DNA from: Actinomycetota bacterium | GTDB lineage: Bacteria; Actinomycetota; Aquicultoria; Subteraquimicrobiales; Subteraquimicrobiaceae | Assembly: GCA_030018275.1 (NCBI GenBank) | Contig: JASEGB010000008.1 | Location: 6,353 to 70,352 of the forward strand | Reading direction: 5' to 3' | DNA length: 64,000 nt | In this document: piece by piece, positions 39 through 59,870 of the stretch | How positions within the stretch are numbered: position 1 is the first letter of the stretch | Layout: every line of letters begins with the position of its first letter | The notes under the pieces: model-generated | What the model was told of the DNA's origin: nothing | Database searches by the model: none | What the model saw: the letters and a program-made list of their open reading frames with translations, nothing else | Position numbers and translations under genes: made by a program

Positions 39-401
39 ATGAAGTATTCTCACGAGCTTTTTCACGAAGCACTAACGGAGTTATTTAAGCAGTGCGGAGT
101 CAGCCTGAGGAAGTTTGCGCGCAGGTGCAAAGTTGATTATACCTATTTGAGTAAATTAAAAAGAGGCAGGATGCCTGCACCTTCAGACGAGGTTATCAGA
201 AGAATCGCCGCTGGTTTTGGAATCTCACCCGATTATTTCATGGAATATCGGGTTCGAAAAGTTTCCCGATATCTGATGTTAAAACCCAATTTGACAACGG
301 CTTTGTATAGGCTCGCAAATCTGCCCATCGAGGTCCAAAAGAAAATTGAGAGCAAAATCATTAGGGCACTTGAGAAAGATTTCCTAAACGTTCCTGGATA
401 A
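39..401 (+). CDS. XRE-family helix-turn-helix transcriptional regulator
   Basis: SLRKFARRCKVDYTYLSKLKRG HTH pattern; ATG at 39 follows GGGAGA. Confidence 0.75.
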   Translation: MKYSHELFHEALTELFKQCGVSLRKFARRCKVDYTYLSKLKRGRMPAPSDEVIRRIAAGFGISPDYFMEYRVRKVSRYLMLKPNLTTALYRLANLPIEVQKKIESKIIRALEKDFLNVPG

Positions 402-1340
402 AAGGGCTTCAACGAACTCGTTGGCATCAAATTCACACAAATCTTCGAGCCTTTCTCCCACTCCGATGAGCTTTATGGGTATTCTAAGCTCATCAGCAAT
501 GGCGACCACTATGCCACCCTTAGCTGTGCCATCCAATTTGGTGAGGATTATTCCATCGATTTTGAGAGCTTCATCGAACAATCTGGCTTGAGCGATTCCA
601 TTCTGACCGGTTGTAGCGTCTATGACCAGTAAAGTTCTTATATTAGCCTCGGACGCCTCTCTCGCCGCTATGCGCTTGATCTTCTTCAGTTCTTCCATTA
701 AATTCACATAGGTATGCAATCTACCTGCGGTATCGATTAAAAGAACGTTAACTCCCCTGGCTTGTGAGGCGTGGATGGAATCGTAGACCACAGCTGCTGG
801 GTCGGATCCTTTCTGGTGTTTTAGAACGGGAGCTCTAACTCTCTCCCCCCATATTTCCAGTTGCTCAATGGCGGCTGCTCTAAAAGTATCCGCGGCGGCG
901 AGGAGGACTTTTAAACCTCCTTTCATAGCTCGATGAGCGATTTTGGCTATAGCAGTTGTCTTGCCCACACCATTGACCCCAACGATTATTAAGACATTGA
1001 GTTTATTTGCCAGGAAAAGGGGCTCTTTGGAGTCACCAAGAATGCGGATGAGTTCTTCTTTAAGTAGTCCAAGGATTTGGAGAGGATCTTGGATCCTTTC
1101 GATCTCAACGCGTTCTCGAAGGTCCTGGACTATTTTAAGGGTGGCCTTGATGCCGACATCCGCTTGAATCAAAACTTCTTCGATATCATCCCATACCTTT
1201 TCGCCGGGTATTATTGCTCTCGAAAAAATATCGAAAAGTTGGTCGGTTAGTTTTTCCCGACTCCTTCTTAAACCAGTTTTTAACCTTTTAAGCCAACCCT
1301 TTGATGAGTCGCTCAGTTTAAGTTCTCCCCGCTTTTTCAT
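384..1340 (-). CDS. ftsY: SRP receptor GTPase FtsY (NG domain only)
   Basis: GVNGVGKTT, DTFRAAA, DTAGR, TKLDGTAKGG motifs; follows smc. Confidence 0.97.
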   Translation of the reverse strand: MKKRGELKLSDSSKGWLKRLKTGLRRSREKLTDQLFDIFSRAIIPGEKVWDDIEEVLIQADVGIKATLKIVQDLRERVEIERIQDPLQILGLLKEELIRILGDSKEPLFLANKLNVLIIVGVNGVGKTTAIAKIAHRAMKGGLKVLLAAADTFRAAAIEQLEIWGERVRAPVLKHQKGSDPAAVVYDSIHASQARGVNVLLIDTAGRLHTYVNLMEELKKIKRIAAREASEANIRTLLVIDATTGQNGIAQARLFDEALKIDGIILTKLDGTAKGGIVVAIADELRIPIKLIGVGERLEDLCEFDANEFVEALLSRNV

Positions 1341-4068
1341 ACGCTACTTCCTCTTCCGGTTTAAATTTCTGTGAAATGAGTTTGGATATCCCATCAGCCT
1401 GCATGGAAACACCGTAGATTGCATCAGCTATTTCCATGGTTCGCCCTTGATGGGTGATGATGAGGAATTGGACCTTACCCCTAAGCTTGCTTACAAGGGC
1501 GATAAAGCGCTGTAGATTTACGTCATCCAGAGTGGCTTCGACTTCATCGAGTACATAAAAGGGGCTGGGATGCGTATGATAAATTGCAAACAGAAACGCC
1601 AAAGCCACAAGAGCAGTTTCTCCCCCTGATAATAATGATAATTTCTGCAATCTTTTTCCACCGGGTTGAGCTTCAATATCGATGCCCGTATTCAGTACAT
1701 CATCTCTGTCAGTTAAGGTGAGTTCACCCTTTCCACCTGGAAATAAATAGGAGAAGATTGATTGGAAATTTAGGTTAACTTCCTCGAAGGTCTCGAGGAT
1801 TCTATCCTCGATTTTTTTGTCAATGGCTCTAATGACCTTCCCCAAAGCTCGCTTGCTTTCTAAAAGGTCATTGATTTGGGTATTAAGAAACTTTTGCCTT
1901 TCTTCCAAGGCGGCAAAATCTTTCAAGGCTATGGGGTTGACTGGCCCCAATTTAGCGATTTCCTCTTTTAGCTTTTGAATTTGAAATTCATAGGTTCTTT
2001 TGGAACCCCTTGGGCTATCTTTAAGGGCTTTTTCAAGGGAAACACCATATTCCCTCACGATCTTTTCGACCAAGGTTTTGACTTCGAGCTCCAGTTGAGC
2101 CTGGGAAACTTCGAGATGATGTACATTTTCCCGTAGTTGTTCTATTTGTCCGTCCAAGAAGCCCGCTTTGGTTTGGGATTCCTTGATGGATTTTCGAATC
2201 CCCCTTGAAACATTTTCTTCATCAGTGGCTATGTTCTCTAGTTTGGAATCCCACTGCTCAATTTCACTTACCAGCTGACAAAAAAGATTGTGGAGGGGTT
2301 GAATTCGCGTTCTTAAATGCTCTAGTGATCGAGCGATTCCATATTCTGATTTTAGAAGATCTTCAACCTCATTTAACTCTCTCTTGGCTGTAACCAGTTG
2401 TTTCTCTGTATAAACTCTTCGCTCTTCCAGGGAAGCAAGTTCAGCTTGGCATTGGGTAATCTCTTTACGGATTTTATCTCCTTCCTCTGAGGAAAGACCT
2501 TTTTCCTTTTCAAGGACCTGCATTTTATAGTCTAAAATGGTGATTTCTTCCTCAAGAGATGCAATTTCGTCCTTCAGCTTTTTTTGGGGCTTGTCTCCGA
2601 TGGCGGTGGCACGTCTGGGAAGATTCTCCAAAACTTTAAGGAAATTTTCCTGGATCGTTTCCTGTTCATCTTGGATTTTTTCGAGTTTTGCCTTTACATC
2701 CTGACATAATTGGGTCAAATCTCTTAAAGATCCTCTTCCCTCAAGTTTTTGTGATAAATCCAGCAAATTTTGTTGGCAGAGTGCCAATTTTTTGGCTTGT
2801 TTCCTTAAACTGGAAAGGACTTTGGCCAAAGTGCGTTCCAATGCAATCCATGTCGCTTCCTCTTCCCATATTCTTTTTTTCTGTGCGAGCTTTGATTGTT
2901 TTGAATAGATTGCCTGCTCAATTTGCTCAATTTTCTCCTCAATCTTTTTCCTATTTGTTCCAAGGGTTTCCATCCTTTGGTGAAGTTCGGAAAGATAGGT
3001 GTGAATTCGCTTGAGCTCCGTATCGGTAACAAACCTCTCCTCTTTTAGCTGGGCTATCTCCCTTTCTCTTTGGTCTTTTCTCTTTTCAAGCTGATGAATT
3101 TTCTGTCGAAATTCACTCAAACGTTCGATTAAATTCTTGCCCTTCTCTTCGAGAAGGAGAAGCCTACTATTTAACCGCTCGTAGATTCCTTGTAGATGGC
3201 GGCGTTGCTCTCCAATATCACTGACCTGGATACCTTTCTCCTCCAAGCTATTGTGCAGCCACTCCAGTTTTCTTTTCTCCGATGTGAGTTCCTCTCTTAA
3301 GGCATCGATCTTAGAACTGAAATTTTCCTTCTTTATTTTGAGATCATTCCATTTGGATTGAAGCTCCTGAAGCTTCATGATGCAAAGTTCAACCTCAAGA
3401 TCCCTTAACTGCTTTGAAAGCTTTTCATGAGTCTGAGCTCGATTTGCCTGAACTTTTAATGGTTTTAGTTGACGATTGACCTCTTGTAATACATCTTTTA
3501 TTCGAACCAGATTGTGATCCATGGAAACTAGCTTCCGTAGGGCTCTTTCCTTACGCTTTTTATGTCTCAAGACTCCCGCAGCTTCTTCAAGGAGTATCCT
3601 CCTTTCATCGGATTTACTGGTCAAGATCTCCTCGAGTTTGCCTTGACCGACGATTGAACAATCCTTATTCAAACCGCTTTCTGAGAGGAGATCTTGAATG
3701 TCCACAAGGCGGCAGGGTGAATCATTTATGAGGTATTCACTCTCCCCTGAACGCAATATTCTTCGAGTGATGACGACTTCGGAGAATTCAACGGGGAGGA
3801 AACCATCGGAATTATCGAGATAGAGGGAAACTTCCGCTAAACCCAGAGCTGGTCTTAAGCGACTCCCTGCAAATATTATATCCTCCATGGAGGAACCCCG
3901 AAGTGCTCGGGGATTTTGTTCACCCAATACCCAGAGGATGGCATCGGTTATATTACTCTTACCGCTGCCATTGGGTCCGACAATAATAGTTACCCCTGGC
4001 TCGAATTTAAAGAGTGTCTTATCGGCGAAGGATTTAAATCCGCGAAGAGTAAGAGATTTAAGATACAA
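1318..4068 (-). CDS. smc: SMC chromosome segregation ATPase, short (916 aa), no recognisable hinge
   Basis: MYLKSLTLRGFKSF, GPNGSGKSN Walker A, LSGGE signature, VLDEVEA Walker B; conserved rnc-smc-ftsY synteny. Confidence 0.9.
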   Translation of the reverse strand: MYLKSLTLRGFKSFADKTLFKFEPGVTIIVGPNGSGKSNITDAILWVLGEQNPRALRGSSMEDIIFAGSRLRPALGLAEVSLYLDNSDGFLPVEFSEVVITRRILRSGESEYLINDSPCRLVDIQDLLSESGLNKDCSIVGQGKLEEILTSKSDERRILLEEAAGVLRHKKRKERALRKLVSMDHNLVRIKDVLQEVNRQLKPLKVQANRAQTHEKLSKQLRDLEVELCIMKLQELQSKWNDLKIKKENFSSKIDALREELTSEKRKLEWLHNSLEEKGIQVSDIGEQRRHLQGIYERLNSRLLLLEEKGKNLIERLSEFRQKIHQLEKRKDQREREIAQLKEERFVTDTELKRIHTYLSELHQRMETLGTNRKKIEEKIEQIEQAIYSKQSKLAQKKRIWEEEATWIALERTLAKVLSSLRKQAKKLALCQQNLLDLSQKLEGRGSLRDLTQLCQDVKAKLEKIQDEQETIQENFLKVLENLPRRATAIGDKPQKKLKDEIASLEEEITILDYKMQVLEKEKGLSSEEGDKIRKEITQCQAELASLEERRVYTEKQLVTAKRELNEVEDLLKSEYGIARSLEHLRTRIQPLHNLFCQLVSEIEQWDSKLENIATDEENVSRGIRKSIKESQTKAGFLDGQIEQLRENVHHLEVSQAQLELEVKTLVEKIVREYGVSLEKALKDSPRGSKRTYEFQIQKLKEEIAKLGPVNPIALKDFAALEERQKFLNTQINDLLESKRALGKVIRAIDKKIEDRILETFEEVNLNFQSIFSYLFPGGKGELTLTDRDDVLNTGIDIEAQPGGKRLQKLSLLSGGETALVALAFLFAIYHTHPSPFYVLDEVEATLDDVNLQRFIALVSKLRGKVQFLIITHQGRTMEIADAIYGVSMQADGISKLISQKFKPEEEVAYEKAGRT

Positions 4069-4312
4069 AACTACCTCCTGGCTTCAACTCAAAGGTATTC
4101 TACCATAGATAAATCTTGCGATAAATCATCCCTGTTCATACGCTTAAAAGGTGTTATAGCTGCTAAAATGGTGGAAAAATTTTTTCCTCCTTATCAGCTG
4201 CGGGTTTAAAATTTTTTTCAAAAAGGTGTTTCGCCAAAGGGGAGAAATGTGATAAATTGGTTTCTGGTTTGGGTCTAGAATACAACCGCCTGCCCCGCCT
4301 AAAGGAGGTTGT

Positions 4313-5329
4313 ATGCTGAGGGAGAGACCTCTTGCTTTAGTTCTGGCATTTGTCGTTGCACTACTTTTACCACTAAGTGTAGCTAACCCCACCGCCTCTA
4401 ATCCATTAAGCAATGCAGAATTAGAAATTCAAAGGCAACAAACACGGATCTCATCATTAGAGGGGCAAGAGAAGAGTATCCTCATCGAATTAGTAGCCAT
4501 CGATACCAGTCTAGAGCGCAATGAGGAAGAACTTGAATCCCTCAGCGCGAAACTTTCGACTACCCGAGATAGACTCCTCCAACTAGAGGGCGAGTGGCAG
4601 CGAACAAATGAAAAACTTCGTGAGAAAACCGAGATACTCAATGAGAGGATCAAGAATATTTATATCAATGGAGAAGTAAGTCCTGCCCAATTCCTCTTTA
4701 ATTCAAATGATTTTTATACCCTTCTTAAGATTCTAACCTATATGCAAATCATTGCCGCAAACGATGCGGAATTGGTTAGATCTGTAAGCCAGGAAAAGGA
4801 ACGTCTTGAATATCTCAAAGATGAGATCGAAGGGAAGTGTGAATATCTTACCCATTTAAAATCCGAGTACGAATCAAGGCGAGAGTTGCTATCTCAAAAA
4901 CTTAAGGAGAAAAGAAATTTTCTAGATAAAATACGGCGGGAGAAGAGATTAAGCTACGGGAAATTAAGGATACTTAAAACTAGGACCTCTTTGATCAGAA
5001 GCAGGATGCATCAACTACAACCTCCGAGTAGAGGCATCGAGGCAAGGAGCCTTAGGATGCTGGCAACTGCATACTGTCCCTGCAAGATTTGTACGGGCTC
5101 TGGAAATGGAAGAACAGCCACGGGTATGCTCGCCGGATACGGCGTTGTCGCTGTTGACCCCCGTGTCATTCCCCTCGGCACTAAGCTTTATATCTCAGGT
5201 TACGGGGAGGCGATAGCGGGCGATGTTGGCAGATCCATCAAAGGTTATAGGATTGATCTATGTTTCAACACCCACGCTGAGGCTGCAAGATTCGGAAAAC
5301 GCTGGGTTACCGTGGAAATAAGGGATTAA
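4313..5329 (+). CDS. Exported coiled-coil protein with C-terminal 3D (MltA-like) domain
   Basis: Signal peptide, long coiled coil, ATAY...GVVAVDPRVIPLGTKLYISGYGEAIAGDVG...IDL 3D motif. Confidence 0.85.
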   Translation: MLRERPLALVLAFVVALLLPLSVANPTASNPLSNAELEIQRQQTRISSLEGQEKSILIELVAIDTSLERNEEELESLSAKLSTTRDRLLQLEGEWQRTNEKLREKTEILNERIKNIYINGEVSPAQFLFNSNDFYTLLKILTYMQIIAANDAELVRSVSQEKERLEYLKDEIEGKCEYLTHLKSEYESRRELLSQKLKEKRNFLDKIRREKRLSYGKLRILKTRTSLIRSRMHQLQPPSRGIEARSLRMLATAYCPCKICTGSGNGRTATGMLAGYGVVAVDPRVIPLGTKLYISGYGEAIAGDVGRSIKGYRIDLCFNTHAEAARFGKRWVTVEIRD

Positions 5330-6039
5330 TCGTTATTTTCTCCTCGTAGTGTTTCTAAAGCCTCTTGGGCTGCTCTTTGTTCTGCCTTTTTCTTACTCCG
5401 ACCCATTCCTTTGCCTAATATCTTGCCTTGAACCAGAACTTCTACATGAAAAATTCTTTCGTGAACGGGCCCTTCTTCACGGGTAATTTGGTATTCGGGC
5501 ACTGCCCCTAGCTTCTCCATGGTGTATTCTTGGAGAGTCGTTTTAAAATCCGAGAATTCCTTTAAGGTTTGCTCAAAGATTATATCCTTGAAATTTTTGA
5601 GAATGAATTCTCTAACTGCGCTTAAACTTTGATCAAGGTATATAGCTCCCAATACGGCTTCAAAACAATCTGCAAGGATGGATGTCCTTTCTCTCCCTCC
5701 AGTGAGTTCGGCTCCTTTGCCCATAAAAATAAATTCACCCAAGCCTATCCCTTGAGCCACTTTAGCCAAAACTTCAGAGTTAACCAAGTTTGCCCTGAAT
5801 TTTGCCAATTCTCCCTCATTAAATCCGGGGAAGCGGTAGAAGATAAAATCCGTGATCACGAAATTAAGGATGGCATCGCCTAAGAACTCAATTCTTTCGT
5901 AAACTTCCCTTGCGTCCATGCCCATTTCAAAGGCGAAAGAACTATGAGTTAAAGCCCGTTTGAGTAAGTTCTTATTGGAGAAGGTGATGCCGAGATGCTT
6001 CTCCGCTTTTGCGATCCTATCTTTTTCCTCGATCTGCAG
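5326..6039 (-). CDS. rnc: Ribonuclease III (start codon uncertain)
   Basis: ERIEFLGDA signature and dsRBD; the frame stays open upstream of ORF-track ATG 5925 through LGITFSNKNLLKRALTHSS to a TGA at 6046-6048; CTG 6039 is used here as a provisional start. Confidence 0.9.
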   Translation of the reverse strand: MQIEEKDRIAKAEKHLGITFSNKNLLKRALTHSSFAFEMGMDAREVYERIEFLGDAILNFVITDFIFYRFPGFNEGELAKFRANLVNSEVLAKVAQGIGLGEFIFMGKGAELTGGRERTSILADCFEAVLGAIYLDQSLSAVREFILKNFKDIIFEQTLKEFSDFKTTLQEYTMEKLGAVPEYQITREEGPVHERIFHVEVLVQGKILGKGMGRSKKKAEQRAAQEALETLRGENND

Positions 6040-6056
6040 AACATCTCACAACCTTT

Positions 6057-7321: not shown

Positions 7322-8012
7322 TTAAATTCCCTCGATTAGATTTTTTATAATTTCCCCGACGGGTAAAATCTCCTTTACTTCTCCCACTCGCTCGCCGCAG
7401 AAGACCAAACCCCTCCTCATATCACCCCGCTGTGCTCTCACCAAGGCTTCGATGATGCAATAGTTCTTTTTGCAATGTTTAAGACATTTCACACATCTTT
7501 TATAATCGACCGGTTTGGGGACTTTCCCAACGAAAAGAGCTTTAGTGAAGGAAGTTAGAAGAGCTCTCCCGGGCATGCCCACCGGGCTTTCGATGATTAC
7601 GACATCTTCTGGTTTCCGAATCCTTCGGCCAATTTAGCAACCCTTTCTGAGGATACAATGGGGACGAAGGGTATGTTGGCATTGTGACACCATTTAAAAG
7701 CATCACGGGAAAAGCCTGCTCCTGATATGATTAAATCGACTTTTTCTCGAATGGCAGTCCGAACAAGTTCAGCAAACTCTCCCAGCGCCACCATGATATT
7801 TACTCCGATAATTCCATCAGTCAGTTTTCGAGCACGACGAATATGTTCAACGAGTTCAGGAGAGTGTAACCCGAACCAGCAATAATTCCAACTCCCCCCT
7901 CATTAGCCACAGCTGCAGCCAAAGGGGCAAGGGAGATTCTAACCACCATGCCTCCCTGTATAATTGGCAGTGAAGTCTGCCATTCTCCGATTTTCAATTT
8001 GGGCAACTCCAC
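7322..8012 (-). pseudogene. Nitronate-monooxygenase-family (FabX/UfaA-like, Cys-cluster) flavoprotein, frameshifted and internally deleted
   Basis: Three fragments: LPIIQGGM..LAAAVANEGGVG; GVNIMVA..ISGAGF; SPVGMPGRA..CVKCLKHC..YCI. Frameshift near 7870; deletion junction near 7620 removes the EGxxAGGH and GVQMGTRF segments. Confidence 0.8.
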
Positions 8013-8061
8013 AAGGTATTCCCCCAATAAAAACAATTTTGCTGTTTAAGTAGATTCGCAG

Positions 8062-38045: not shown

Positions 38046-38996
38046 TTACTTCGGGCTTAATTTCTTGAGTCTTTCGATCCCCTTATCGATCTCGGTGACC
38101 AGCTTTTCATGCAACTTGGTATTGCTCGCGGCGATGGTTGAGACTTGGGCTTCAACTCCTGAACCTAAAAGAGGATGATCATCCAAAGGATTGCCCCATC
38201 CATCGGTTATGATGCATCCTGCCTCTTGAGCGATCAGAGTAGCTGCGGCAATATCATAGGGGTTGTTATTGAGGATGTTCCCCTTCCCCACCCTTTCAAA
38301 TTCCCTTTTCACCCAGGGAACTTCTTCGATCATCCGCTTTCCGATATCAACATAGGCATCCATCTGCCCAGTGAGAAGACGTGTGATGGAGAAGCAAGCA
38401 CTGCCTATATCGAAGACTCCTCCATTAACCGAAGAGATGTTGACTAAATCCCCAAGCACCGTTATAAGGAGATCGGCGGGTCGTCCTCGAAATCCAAAGG
38501 TCCAGAAGAGTGTGGCGAGGTCCACATTTGTGCTTGGAGTGGGCTCCATTTCTTCCCCATTTCTCTCAATCCTTACACCCTTACCTCTTTCGGCGGTGAA
38601 CATAGTGTCATTTTTGATCTCCTGGACACAGCCATAAAAGACATCCTTCATGAGTGGTTTGGGTTTATAAGTAGCAACTGCCACTGAGACGCAGCAGGAT
38701 TCCAGACCGGCAGCTGCGGGGCGAGAACCATCGACCGGATCCACGATGAGCACATACTCTGGCTCTCCGAAAATAACGAGCCCCTTGTCCTCTGAATAAT
38801 AAGCGATATTCCCCTGAGCTTTTAAGTAGGATTCAACCTCTCTCTCGGCTATTTCATCGATAGCAAAGGTGGTATTCCCACCCACTGCTTGACCAAGAGA
38901 TACTCTTGATGCAATTTTCCCCAAATGGGGCTTGACTATCCTCTGAATCCTTTGAGTTAACTCATACGCTAAATCCTTAATATCCATCCCTGCCAC
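38046..38996 (-). CDS. Inositol monophosphatase / FBPase family protein
   Basis: SED, DPVDGS, PYDIAAA..EAG. Confidence 0.88.
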   Translation of the reverse strand: MAGMDIKDLAYELTQRIQRIVKPHLGKIASRVSLGQAVGGNTTFAIDEIAEREVESYLKAQGNIAYYSEDKGLVIFGEPEYVLIVDPVDGSRPAAAGLESCCVSVAVATYKPKPLMKDVFYGCVQEIKNDTMFTAERGKGVRIERNGEEMEPTPSTNVDLATLFWTFGFRGRPADLLITVLGDLVNISSVNGGVFDIGSACFSITRLLTGQMDAYVDIGKRMIEEVPWVKREFERVGKGNILNNNPYDIAAATLIAQEAGCIITDGWGNPLDDHPLLGSGVEAQVSTIAASNTKLHEKLVTEIDKGIERLKKLSPK

Positions 38997-39412
38997 TACC
39001 CAAACTCTTTAGGATCCACCCTACTAACCTCTTCAATTTGGTCAAAGTGCTTATCTGTGCTAATGATTTCCCTGATATCGTTATTTATCATCACTGCAAC
39101 GTGAATATGGTCACGAGGAGGTAGGTCAGGATATTTTTTTAGGAGTTCGAAGGTTATTTCTACTTCCCTTTTGGTTACAGACAAAACGTCTGAAACAGCA
39201 ACCGAAAAATCCTTTGCCGTCTCTAACCCATCTTTTCCTTTGCCTATCATAAAATATCGATATAAGATCTCCTGTAATACTTCAGTATCAGTAACAGCTG
39301 TGATTTTTTCATCGCCTATATCTCTCAAGATAGCGGAGCAGGATTGCTTGTACTCATGCCCTTTACCAACCGCATACATCACTATATTTGCGTCAATGAA
39401 ATATATGCTCAT
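38996..39412 (-). CDS. VapC-like PIN toxin
   Basis: FIDANI, EVLQE, PRDHIHVA, STDKHFD. Confidence 0.9.
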   Translation of the reverse strand: MSIYFIDANIVMYAVGKGHEYKQSCSAILRDIGDEKITAVTDTEVLQEILYRYFMIGKGKDGLETAKDFSVAVSDVLSVTKREVEITFELLKKYPDLPPRDHIHVAVMINNDIREIISTDKHFDQIEEVSRVDPKEFG

Positions 39413-39654
39413 AGAATAGCTCCCTTCATTATCTCTTCTTCCATTTTTTCCCAATCATCTATGGGTAATTCACGCGAAAGCATACGTTCGACCGCTTTTT
39501 TCTTCTCTAACTTGGTGCGTTCATGTAGCAACTTTTCTATTGCCTCTCGAATAACAGAAGCCACTGATTTCTTACGCTTTTTAGCATACAATTCAAGTTT
39601 CCTATACTGCTCTGGCGATAATAATATTTGTAGGCGTTTAGTGAGCTCAGACAT
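39409..39654 (-). CDS. Ribbon-helix-helix (CopG) antitoxin
   Basis: RLQILL..YRKL..AK..KKSVASVIREAI; 4-nt overlap with the PIN gene. Confidence 0.88.
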   Translation of the reverse strand: MSELTKRLQILLSPEQYRKLELYAKKRKKSVASVIREAIEKLLHERTKLEKKKAVERMLSRELPIDDWEKMEEEIMKGAIL

Positions 39655-45695: not shown

Positions 45696-46235
45696 TCAGT
45701 GGATGCGTTTCAAGAAGGGTTCTATGTATCTACGCTGCACGGGGTCGACTGATTGCTCCAATAGGACCAAGACAATGTATCGAGGTTCAAAGGGAGTGGC
45801 CTTGGGATACATTTTAGCCTCATATGGAAGCCTATTTCCCTTCAAATAATTGCAAGCTGAGCAAGCAGTGGTTACATTATCCCAGGTATCTGTACCACCT
45901 TTGCAGAGGGGTTTTACGTGCTCTCGAGTTAAATACTCCCCCTTTCTAAATTCACTTTTATGACGTCCACAATATTGGCAGGTATAGTGATCCCGGGCAA
46001 AAAGTATGGAATTGGTAACTATTCCGCGAAGCCTGCGGGGAATTTCCACATATTTAATTAATCTAATCACCAGTGGGTATGGATACTCACGTTTTTCAGA
46101 GCGAATACGCTTCTCCACATGTTCCTCTATAACCTCTGCTTTTTCTTTAAGCACCAGAATTATTGCCCGTCTAACTGGTACAAAAGTGAGGGGCTCCGCA
46201 CTGGCGTTTAAAATTAAAGTTTTCCCCACAATCAC
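45696..46235 (-). CDS. HNH endonuclease
   Basis: LILNAS.EPL, RD..TCQYCG, EHV.P..GG..W.N.TTAC..CN..K. Confidence 0.9.
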   Translation of the reverse strand: MIVGKTLILNASAEPLTFVPVRRAIILVLKEKAEVIEEHVEKRIRSEKREYPYPLVIRLIKYVEIPRRLRGIVTNSILFARDHYTCQYCGRHKSEFRKGEYLTREHVKPLCKGGTDTWDNVTTACSACNYLKGNRLPYEAKMYPKATPFEPRYIVLVLLEQSVDPVQRRYIEPFLKRIH

Positions 46236-58533: not shown

Positions 58534-59870
58534 CTAACTCTCCTTTCTAAATCTACAAACAAATAAACCATCGGTTCCATGCCTATGGGGCAAGAGCTGA
58601 ATGAATTTAAGAGGCATTTCAGCCCTTAAGGAGGGAGGAAAGAAAGAGGAGATATCCTCAAGGGAAAATTCAGGATGCTTTTTCAAGAATTCCTTCGCCA
58701 CCTGCTCACTTTCCCTCTTCGAGATGGTACACACGGAGTACACCAGCACCCCCTTTCTTTTAAAAATTTTGAAGCCGAATCCAACAGTCTCGATTGTAGA
58801 AGGGAAAGTTCATCAATCTGCCGAGGAGTTTTCCGCCATCTAGCATCGGGTCGCCTGGCTAAGCCACCCAATCCCGAGCAAGGGGCATCCACCAAGACTC
58901 TATCCACGGGTGATTCCACAATCTCTCCAAGCCTTGTGGAATCACCTTGAATGATTTGGACGTTTTTGATACCTAAGCGTGAGCAATTATCCCTAACCAA
59001 TCCTAAGCGATTTTGATGGATGTCCACGGCGATTATCCTTCCCTCATTCCCCATTAACTGAGCAAGGTGAGTGGTCTTTCCTCCCGGGGCTGCACAAGTA
59101 TTTAAAATAACCTCCCCGGGTTTGAGGTCTACTATATGACCAACCAAGATGGAACTCTCATCCTGTAATAAGAATAGCCCTTCTCTGAATTCTGTGAGCT
59201 CGGTTACACTCCCCATATCCTCGACAATCAGGGCTTCGGGCAACCAACTTGAGCTAATTTTAAGTCCTTCACTTTCAAGGCGACGAGCCAAATTTGAGAG
59301 GGAAATTTTGAGGGTGTTCACTCGAATAACCATTCGAGGGCGAACATCATTTGTTTGGCACAGTAAAGCGGTCTCCTCAAAACCGAAATCCCTTACCTAC
59401 ATCTCTACAATCCAGCACGGGTGGGAATGCTTAAAGGAGATATACCCAATGGGTCATCTTGGTGGTCGGGCCAGGGAAGTTTTTCCCTGCCTCGAATGAC
59501 CCTGTGCAGGATCGCATTGACGAAACTCCCCATAGCGGGGTGAAAGTATTTCTTGGCTAATTCGACAGTTTCGTTGCAGAAGGCGTGATTGGGAATCTTA
59601 TCGAGGTAAAGAATTTGATAACAACCAAGCCTAAGGATATCCAAGGCTTTCTCTTGAATCTTGCTCGGCTTTGGCGGGTAAAAGCGGGTTAAAATCCAAT
59701 CCAAAGTGCCTTCATTTCTAAGGGTTCCGCACGAGTTCAGCAACTAGAGCTCTGTCGCGCTTTGATAGATCACTTTCCGCCAAAAGTCTGGAGAGAACGA
59801 GATTGGCATAACTCCCAGTCTCATGAACCCTGCATATTGCCTCCAAAGCCACTTCCCTCGCAGTTTTCAT
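58534..59870 (-). pseudogene. rsmB: 16S rRNA m5C967 methyltransferase (Sun/RsmB), broken
   Basis: ATG 59870 overlaps the fmt stop; NusB-like part, CAAPGGKT, DAPCSG, YSVCT in different frames; at least 3 frameshifts (~59730, ~59440, ~58750) and a TAG at a Trp-like position (~59398). Confidence 0.9.

Follow-up and report, generated by a model that had tools for sequence, protein, structure and literature searches.

Can an SMC protein do without its hinge, which is usually regarded as a defining and essential part of these proteins, being both their dimerisation point and a DNA-contact site? The question is raised by an smc gene in a 64,000-nucleotide (nt) stretch of an actinomycetotal contig, JASEGB010000008.1 (the whole stretch is called the window here, and coordinates are counted from its first letter). 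The gene, the only one for a chromosome-organising SMC seen in this bacterium within these 64 kb, lies on the reverse strand (1318..4068) and encodes a bacterial Smc ortholog of 916 amino acids (aa) that has intact ATPase head motifs and no hinge. We describe the identity and descent of this protein, the predicted architecture of its middle, the occurrence of similar proteins elsewhere and the ways in which it may still dimerise.

Identity and descent of the 916-aa Smc

The open reading frame (ORF) starts with a TTG codon, and the sequence AGGAGG, read directly 5 nt 5′ of this codon (4074..4079, reverse strand), provides a strong ribosome-binding site. A Pfam scan matched SMC_N (E = 1.5e-68) across aa 2–895. 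The bacterial SMC equivalog model TIGR02168 (NCBIfam SMC_prok_B) matched in two stretches, the first aligning aa 2–483 with model positions 1–486, and its score of 786 bits exceeded the cutoff of 567. Models of related families scored far below their cutoffs, with at most 77 bits for the Rad50 models (cutoffs 700–1087), 25 bits for SbcC (cutoff 478) and 46 bits for RecN (TIGR00634, cutoff 408). The N-terminal half of the ATPase head (aa 1–166, 3571..4068, reverse strand), modelled by AlphaFold2 (AF2) as strands and helices with a predicted local distance difference test score (pLDDT) of ~85, contains the Walker A motif G31–S38 (nt 3955–3978). The C-terminal half (aa 746–916, 1321..1833, reverse strand) contains the signature SGGE (S814–E817, nt 1618–1629), the Walker B motif (nt 1543–1560) with D841–E842 and the H-loop residue H873 (nt 1450–1452). 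All of these motifs, together with Q142, are invariant columns in an alignment of 120 sequences. Both the full SMC head (Walker A, signature and Walker B) and the length of 916 aa at 1318–4068 had been given in a preliminary description of this DNA, and both are borne out. In NCBI the protein is labelled only as an ‘AAA family ATPase’.

The hinge was sought in several ways, and its presence or absence was judged by Pfam. No match to SMC_hinge (PF06470) was obtained in the 916-aa protein even at E ≤ 1, while the same scan, as a positive control, detected the domain in P0003, the closest full-length relative (E = 4.3e-21). A custom hidden Markov model (HMM) built from the hinges of close relatives also gave no match in the protein; this model is narrow and fails on 7 full-length SMCs of more distant groups as well. 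In two AF2 models the middle of the protein is all-helical, with no strands and no globular domain, and a PDB sequence search with aa 395–500 returned only chance coiled coils. There is no CxxC zinc hook in the sequence; the mid-arm region near the tip has just two cysteines, C431 and C455, separated by 23 residues. The preliminary description had reported neither a hinge nor a CxxC hook from the letters alone, and had proposed an HMM scan and monomer structure prediction as checks; both of these, and the sequence itself, agree with it.

The hinge-less gene is not confined to one assembly. Six distinct copies, all of 916 aa, were found in NCBI, Logan and JGI assemblies. Four of them, including MDI6689075.1 (labelled ‘AAA family ATPase’), form the 90% cluster of the window protein, and the other two, P0002 (MEW6189537.1, GCA_040755895.1) and P0288, form a second cluster at 89% identity. 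The window smc and the P0002 gene (locus L001) could be aligned over 2751 nt of codons without a gap at 90.9% nucleotide identity, with a synonymous divergence (dS) of 0.28 and a ratio of non-synonymous to synonymous divergence (dN/dS) of 0.19. The ratio fell to 0.08 in the C-terminal head and rose to 0.34 in aa 381–520; in the adjoining genes it was 0.23 (ftsY) and 0.20 (pcsB-like). In a neutral simulation with the observed number of 250 substitutions, a mean of ~11 premature stops accumulated and none of 5000 runs remained stop-free. Because the codon alignment is free of gaps and stops at a dN/dS of 0.19, the hinge-less state is older than the split of the window and L001 lineages and has been maintained by selection.

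The nearest relatives of the window protein possess a hinge. Among 8000 scored matches, the best ~120 outside the two 916-aa clusters are 1173–1201 aa long, carry PF06470 and are ~53% identical overall; they come from Actinomycetota, Coriobacteriia and Anaerosomatales metagenome-assembled genomes (MAGs), and also from Candidatus Aquicultor. The hinged P0003 lies in a locus (L082) with the order plsX-fabH-(three extra genes)-fabD-fabG-acpP-fabK-fabF-rnc-smc-ftsY-ffh-rpsP, and the gene order in the window is the same with a single difference. In the window, smc overlaps ftsY (384..1340, reverse strand) at its end by 23 nt, as it does in L001. On its other side, a gene for a coiled-coil protein with a 3D domain (PcsB-like; 4313..5329, forward strand; Pfam 3D, 1.7e-15) stands between smc and rnc (RNase III; 5326..5925, reverse strand). 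This gene is present in L001 (1–857) and absent from L082; among the loci compared its insertion was found only in this lineage, and smc thus has its own upstream region of 244 nt. The rnc-smc-ftsY position assigned in the preliminary description therefore holds in that the neighbourhood is conserved, but rnc and smc are separated by this opposite-strand gene. The gene order shared with L082 shows that the window smc is orthologous to the hinged smc, of 1181 aa, found in its closest relatives. Alignment of the orthologs, another check that had been proposed, thus led to full-length proteins, one of which occupies the same fab-rnc-smc-ftsY-ffh slot.

Segment and diagonal scores were used to locate what had been lost. 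Homology to the hinged relatives is clear in the N-terminal arm up to ~aa 394–400 and in the C-terminal arm from ~aa 495–500, where the offset to P0003 is +271. The intervening aa 395–498 (2575..2886, reverse strand) show no clear homology to either hinged arm by segment z-scores or diagonal scores, and contain the deletion junction; a weak C-arm signal was seen at aa 391–450. The position of the gap differs with the alignment, lying at 440/441 with MAFFT on 7 sequences and at 391/396 with MAFFT on 120 sequences, while phmmer remains collinear with P0003 up to aa 472. These comparisons indicate a net loss of about 270 residues, comprising the hinge (~170) and ~50 residues from each arm, with neither the junction nor the number of events recoverable by alignment.

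The predicted helical hairpin and its probable tip

Two AF2 models were available for the middle of the protein, a full-length model built on the 120-sequence alignment (overall pLDDT 78) and a model of the aa 380–540 fragment made from single-sequence input (pLDDT 81). The full-length model consists of a helix at aa 167–442, a break at 443–449, a helix at 450–481, a second break at 482–493 and a helix from 494 to 673 and onward, and the fragment model places its breaks identically. The first helix is the ascending arm (2743..3570, reverse strand), which is clearly collinear with the hinged relatives only to ~aa 394–400 by the diagonal scores. It is followed by the motif LEGRGSL at aa 443–449 (2722..2742), the first descending helix at aa 450–481 (2626..2721) and a Pro/Gly loop whose non-helical part, aa 482–493 (2590..2625), has a pLDDT below 50 and varies at 3 of 12 sites. 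The loop as a whole, ENLPRRATAIGDKPQK, spans aa 481–496 (nt 2581–2628). All of these elements lie on the reverse strand, as does the remainder of the descending arm (aa 494–745, 1834..2589), which is collinear with the C arm of the hinged proteins at the offset of +271 in P0003.

The preliminary description had seen a continuous coiled coil with a single break at the Pro/Gly loop, which would make this loop the apex. The loop itself is confirmed at nt 2581–2628, but the second break at LEGRGSL (nt 2722–2742) was overlooked, and an apex at the Pro/Gly loop is probably wrong. A tip at aa 443–449 gives arms of 276 and 296 aa, while a tip at the Pro/Gly loop would give 315 and 251 aa. The tips of other hinge-less SMCs, which carry cysteine pairs, coincide with aa 443–449 when aligned. 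Among the six copies, LEGRGSL is the most variable stretch (4 of 7 sites), whereas the helices flanking it vary at 1 of 23 sites (aa 418–440) and 2 of 30 sites (aa 448–477), as little as the heads. Because the arms are balanced, the other tips align there and the loop varies between nearly invariant flanks, the tip is probably LEGRGSL, with the Pro/Gly loop forming a bulge ~40 residues down the descending helix.

The protein is thus predicted to fold back on itself intramolecularly, its middle forming a single long antiparallel helical hairpin of ~276 + 296 residues, ~41 nm in length, with a tight turn at LEGRGSL. Foldseek matched the full model to SMC heads with coiled coil. With aa 380–540 its best matches were two-helix antiparallel hairpins (a chemoreceptor, p85 iSH2 and the dynein stalk), none of them significant (E > 0.3). 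Close to the tip lie the two cysteines mentioned above. By manual heptad reading, the two lie in adjacent layers of the core, Cys431 (2776..2778, reverse strand) as a ‘d’ residue of the ascending helix that precedes the tip loop by 12 residues and Cys455 (2704..2706, reverse strand) as an ‘a’ residue of the descending helix. They are symmetric about residue 443 and unchanged in all six copies. The hydrophobicity of the tip region is ~1.5 standard deviations (SD) above the arm mean, a value that is not decisive.

Hinge loss and tip devices in other lineages

Contrary to what the preliminary description had implied, the window protein is not the only SMC of this kind. An abundant marine actinobacterial clade with ‘hinge-less’ SMC proteins that have no CXXC motif was published in 2025 (Environ Microbiome, PMC12153180), and such proteins recur in several lineages. 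In a search of 1.84 billion representatives for short SMCs matching the window protein, a single collinear match was obtained with P0127 (918 aa), P0128 (930 aa), P0129 (933 aa), P0168 (945 aa), P0193 (858 aa; 17 cluster members) and P0234 (936 aa), and a match in two stretches with P0152 (1003 aa) and P0187 (838 aa). The Pfam scan found PF06470 in none of these proteins; P0193, which has no hinge match, has a Gly-rich tip, GYWIEAGVIDGEVGLDKG. Judged from these sequences, at least six further hinge-less lineages were found besides that of the window and the published marine clade.

A scan of genome contigs, dominated by the common pattern MEDIIFAG, additionally yielded at least nine proteins from Spirochaetota/Leptospirales MAGs (L002–L010; for example L002, 10001–12748), all of exactly 915 aa although the GC content ranges from 35% to 62%. 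The hinge was absent from the four that were scanned with Pfam. All nine lack a tip cysteine and share an invariant mid-arm motif, YEDGFRSILFDKTGIHAEKE; neither ftsY nor rnc was found within 10 kb of their genes.

A neighbour-joining tree was computed from the head and proximal-arm columns with 200 bootstraps. P0152, P0187 and P0193 each paired with a hinged SMC (bootstrap 100%, 100% and 87%, respectively), and the window clade paired with the hinged P0003 and P0004 (55%). A common origin of the window clade with the Cys-pair or other sampled hinge-less clades was recovered in 0 of 200 bootstraps and was rejected, in a tree whose deep nodes are not resolved. Hinge loss in the window lineage thus looks independent of that in the other sampled hinge-less clades, and the number of independent losses suggested by these sequences is a lower-bound estimate.

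Several of the hinge-less proteins carry a conserved device at the tip. Two central cysteines 3–15 residues apart are present in 11 of them (P0128, P0129, P0289, P0290, P0291, P0292, P0306, P0168, P0127, P0152 and P0269). Both cysteines were confirmed by alignment or position in 10 of the 11, P0269 being counted only as a member of the 90% cluster of P0168. The pair is invariant, while the intervening loop and the flanking coiled coil vary freely. In 128 hinged SMCs, the middle regions contained close cysteine pairs at a rate of 0.02 per 50 residues, compared with a pair at the centre of 5 of 11 hinge-less representatives tested, a strong enrichment. One of the proteins with a pair, P0291, is encoded in an smc-ftsY-ffh slot, and the set includes locus L084 (10001–12808). 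In sequence the pair resembles a zinc hook that has replaced the hinge, and such a device has arisen at least twice, the P0152 lineage being distinct from the rest. The conservation of such tip devices suggests that a far-end contact was selected after hinge loss. The tip of the window protein is the least understood of the set because it has neither the cysteine pair nor a conserved motif.

Two other proteins appear to have shrunk by the opposite route: P0145 (960 aa, Candidatus Subteraquimicrobiales) and P0164 (822 aa) have kept the hinge, and their arms are much shorter. A rough arm length, calculated as (total − 340)/2, is ~287–302 aa in six hinge-less lineages, including that of the window, and ~249–259 aa in another two. 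The cluster at ~287–302 aa falls between 238 and 341 aa, the two modes of natural arm length in hinged Smc (PMC5344682).

A proposed far-end contact and alternative explanations

We propose that the hinge-less Smc is still driven by ATP, presumably together with ScpA and ScpB, and that the dimer contact which a hinge ordinarily provides at the far end has been taken over by the conserved helices flanking the tip, aa 418–440 and 448–477. These helices could pack side by side with those of the partner, and the core residues C431 and C455 might take part. That dimerisation occurs at the far end through these helices is inferred, their low variability providing weak evidence that they form the interface. 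A contact of another kind than the hinge is plausible because dimerisation modules have been exchanged elsewhere: Bacillus subtilis Smc whose hinge had been swapped for the Rad50 zinc hook supported normal growth, indicating that the module used for dimerisation need not have a particular fold (PMC5344682), and the MukB hinge can substitute for the Rad50 hook in yeast (PMC6969161). Taken as a whole, we consider it reasonably probable that the window encodes a selected, orthologous Smc that has lost the hinge and ~50 aa from each arm, folds as a helical hairpin and dimerises through its tip helices.

A number of observations weigh against this proposal. The conservation of the tip-flanking helices was estimated from six close sequences, with 3 variable sites against ~7 expected, and AF2 confidence is modest at aa 400–500 (pLDDT ~41–67 in the full-length model). 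The protein has neither the close cysteine pair nor the conserved motif of the other hinge-less clades. Its arms of ~285 aa fall within the range of 270–320 aa in which shortened B. subtilis Smc was non-functional (PMC5344682). No Pfam match to ScpA or ScpB was obtained among the 61 ORFs of the 64-kb window that were scanned, which comprised all those of at least 148 aa except smc, ftsY, fabF and fabG, together with a small number of shorter ORFs. Finally, the decayed fabK and rsmB genes in the same window make some relaxation of selection in this lineage possible. As to what takes the place of the hinge, it is conceivable, and we put it forward tentatively, that the protein has either a minimal far-end module of an undescribed kind, namely a four-helix contact of the tip-flanking helices with perhaps a metal or redox clamp through Cys431 and Cys455, or no closure at the far end at all.

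The alternative that survives best is a functional hinge-less Smc that has no stable contact at its tip, the dimer depending solely on the ATP-engaged heads, on bridging by the kleisin and on lateral contacts between the arms. Such a protein would be an open-ended rod unable to close a ring at its far end, and would act on DNA unlike canonical Smc. In its favour, no other part of the protein varies as much as the short tip loop, a conserved motif, a close cysteine pair and CxxC are all absent, and the hydrophobicity of the tip is only ~1.5 SD above the arm mean. However, the tip-flanking helices are as conserved as the heads, and other independent hinge-less lineages have conserved tip devices (the invariant cysteine pair and the spirochaete motif). 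We know of no evidence that an Smc works without a far-end dimerisation module, and the replacement experiment exchanged the hinge for another dimerisation domain rather than removing it (PMC5344682). We therefore regard an Smc without tip contact as unlikely.

The two long helices might instead pair between chains, as a domain-swapped antiparallel coiled coil, the result being a dumbbell whose two ends each bear a composite head. A turn of 5–7 residues and the absence of a hinge that enforces fold-back make this topologically possible. It has little chance of being correct, as the AF2 monomer brings both halves of the head together in a model that matches structures of SMC heads with coiled coil, the helix break at the Gly-containing loop lies exactly at the geometric centre, and to our knowledge all SMC-family proteins fold intramolecularly.

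The protein could also be a non-functional or partly functional remnant in a decaying genome, comparable to other genes of the window that have suffered deletions. fabK with its two frameshifts and internal loss of ~85 aa, and the split and truncated rsmB, would fit this explanation, and the dN/dS of 0.19 for smc is not especially low. Against it stand the 2751 nt without an indel or stop at a dS of 0.28, where neutral evolution would have left ~11 stops and none of 5000 simulated genes stayed open, a dN/dS equal to that of ftsY, the value of 0.08 in the C-terminal head and the length of 916 aa in all six copies. A disabled remnant is thus highly improbable. The preliminary description had considered that smc, as other genes of the window, might have undergone an in-frame deletion. 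This holds in so far as the gene descends from a hinged smc by a net loss of ~270 aa, but the shortened form is fixed and selected and is not a misassembled or decaying copy; the deletions in fabK and rsmB exist, but those genes are frameshifted or split and smc is not.

That the gene is a paralog or another SMC-like protein (Rad50/SbcC or RecN), with the true hinged smc elsewhere in the genome, might be supposed from its NCBI name of just ‘AAA family ATPase’ and from the coverage of the genome, which is that of the 64-kb window only. Yet its position is exactly that of the hinged smc in its relatives. It also scores above the SMC equivalog cutoff, whereas no Rad50 model exceeds 77 bits where at least 700 are needed and RecN reaches 46 where 408 are needed. 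No Mre11/SbcD-like partner stood out beside smc, and the genomes studied in 2025 had no hinged smc alongside their hinge-less ones (PMC12153180), so that this explanation is barely credible. An assembly artefact that collapsed the hinge region, for which the unusual length alone would speak and which the preliminary description had named together with a recent deletion as a possible cause, can practically be dismissed, as the 916-aa architecture is found in six sequences from independent NCBI, Logan and JGI assemblies, one lineage of which differs by 9% of its nucleotides without an indel.

Several other genes of the window were inspected. fabK (enoyl-ACP reductase II of the NMO family; 7322–8036, reverse strand) is a pseudogene of three ORF fragments in three frames, which amounts to two frameshifts. 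Its lost ~85 internal residues include the GGH and flavin mononucleotide (FMN) region, and the L082 ortholog is intact with 332 aa. rsmB (58683–59743, reverse strand) is represented by an ORF of 112 aa that matches only positions 54–133 of the NusB-domain profile and one of 216 aa that matches only positions 4–133 of the 199-position methyltransferase profile. Upstream of the first ATG, GTG or TTG of rnc, and in frame with it, the conserved N-terminal ~40 residues of RNase III are encoded (HLGITFSNKNLLKRALTHSSFAFE; 5926–6045, reverse strand) with no canonical start before them; rnc as called has 199 aa compared with 234 aa in the L082 ortholog. The alternatives are initiation at a CTG or ATC codon and loss of the start codon. 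An ORF of 152 aa with a PIN domain (38996–39654, reverse strand) overlaps an upstream ORF of 81 aa, the two looking like a VapBC-type toxin-antitoxin pair, and an ORF for an HNH endonuclease lies at 45696–46235.

Compared with known systems, the window protein is closest to the canonical Smc of the B. subtilis Smc-ScpAB complex, with which it shares the head sequence, the ATPase motifs, long helical arms, the smc-ftsY operon position and the equivalog score. It differs in the absence of PF06470 and of ~50 residues per arm, its arms measuring ~276 and 296 aa against ~340 aa in its relatives. Like Rad50/SbcC it combines an ABC head with a hairpin coiled coil without a globular hinge, but it has no CxxC hook, no adjacent Mre11/SbcD (its neighbours being ftsY and the 3D-domain gene) and HMM scores far under the cutoffs; a conserved tip cysteine pair resembling the Rad50 hook belongs to P0127, P0128, P0129, P0168, P0152 and their relatives, not to the window protein. 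RecN shares an SMC-like head but is much shorter, has a different gene context and is separated by its TIGR00634 score (46 against 408 bits). The coiled coil of RecN dimerises through its far end without a hinge. With the marine hinge-less clade the protein shares SMC-type heads, the absence of a hinge and of CXXC, the actinobacterial affiliation and the absence of a hinged smc seen alongside (PMC12153180). That clade, compared here by description only, belongs to a different lineage and setting, and the nearest relatives of the window protein are hinged SMCs from Coriobacteriia, Aquicultor-like and unclassified Actinomycetota MAGs. In the engineered B. subtilis proteins Smc(Zh) and Mini-Smc (Mol Cell 2017, PMC5344682) the hinge was likewise replaced or the arms were shortened and function could be retained, but these constructs keep a hinge or zinc hook, while the window protein shows no defined dimerisation module. 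The window Smc is thus a variant of a known system and a separate occurrence of hinge loss with a tip architecture of its own.

These findings expose a gap in annotation, since hinge-less SMCs are named only ‘AAA family ATPase’ by NCBI. An orthologous smc that lacks the hinge and is under selection of the strength seen for ftsY is a natural counterpart to the engineered replacement of the hinge. Recurrent loss offers a set of alternative tips, namely the bare turn of the window protein, the cysteine pair of other lineages and the conserved motif of the spirochaetes, which are open to direct tests of dimerisation, metal binding, ring closure and complementation. Whether it has a minimal far-end module or no closure at the far end, the window protein would be a natural minimal Smc that shows what the hinge is needed for, and one of several independent solutions to its loss.

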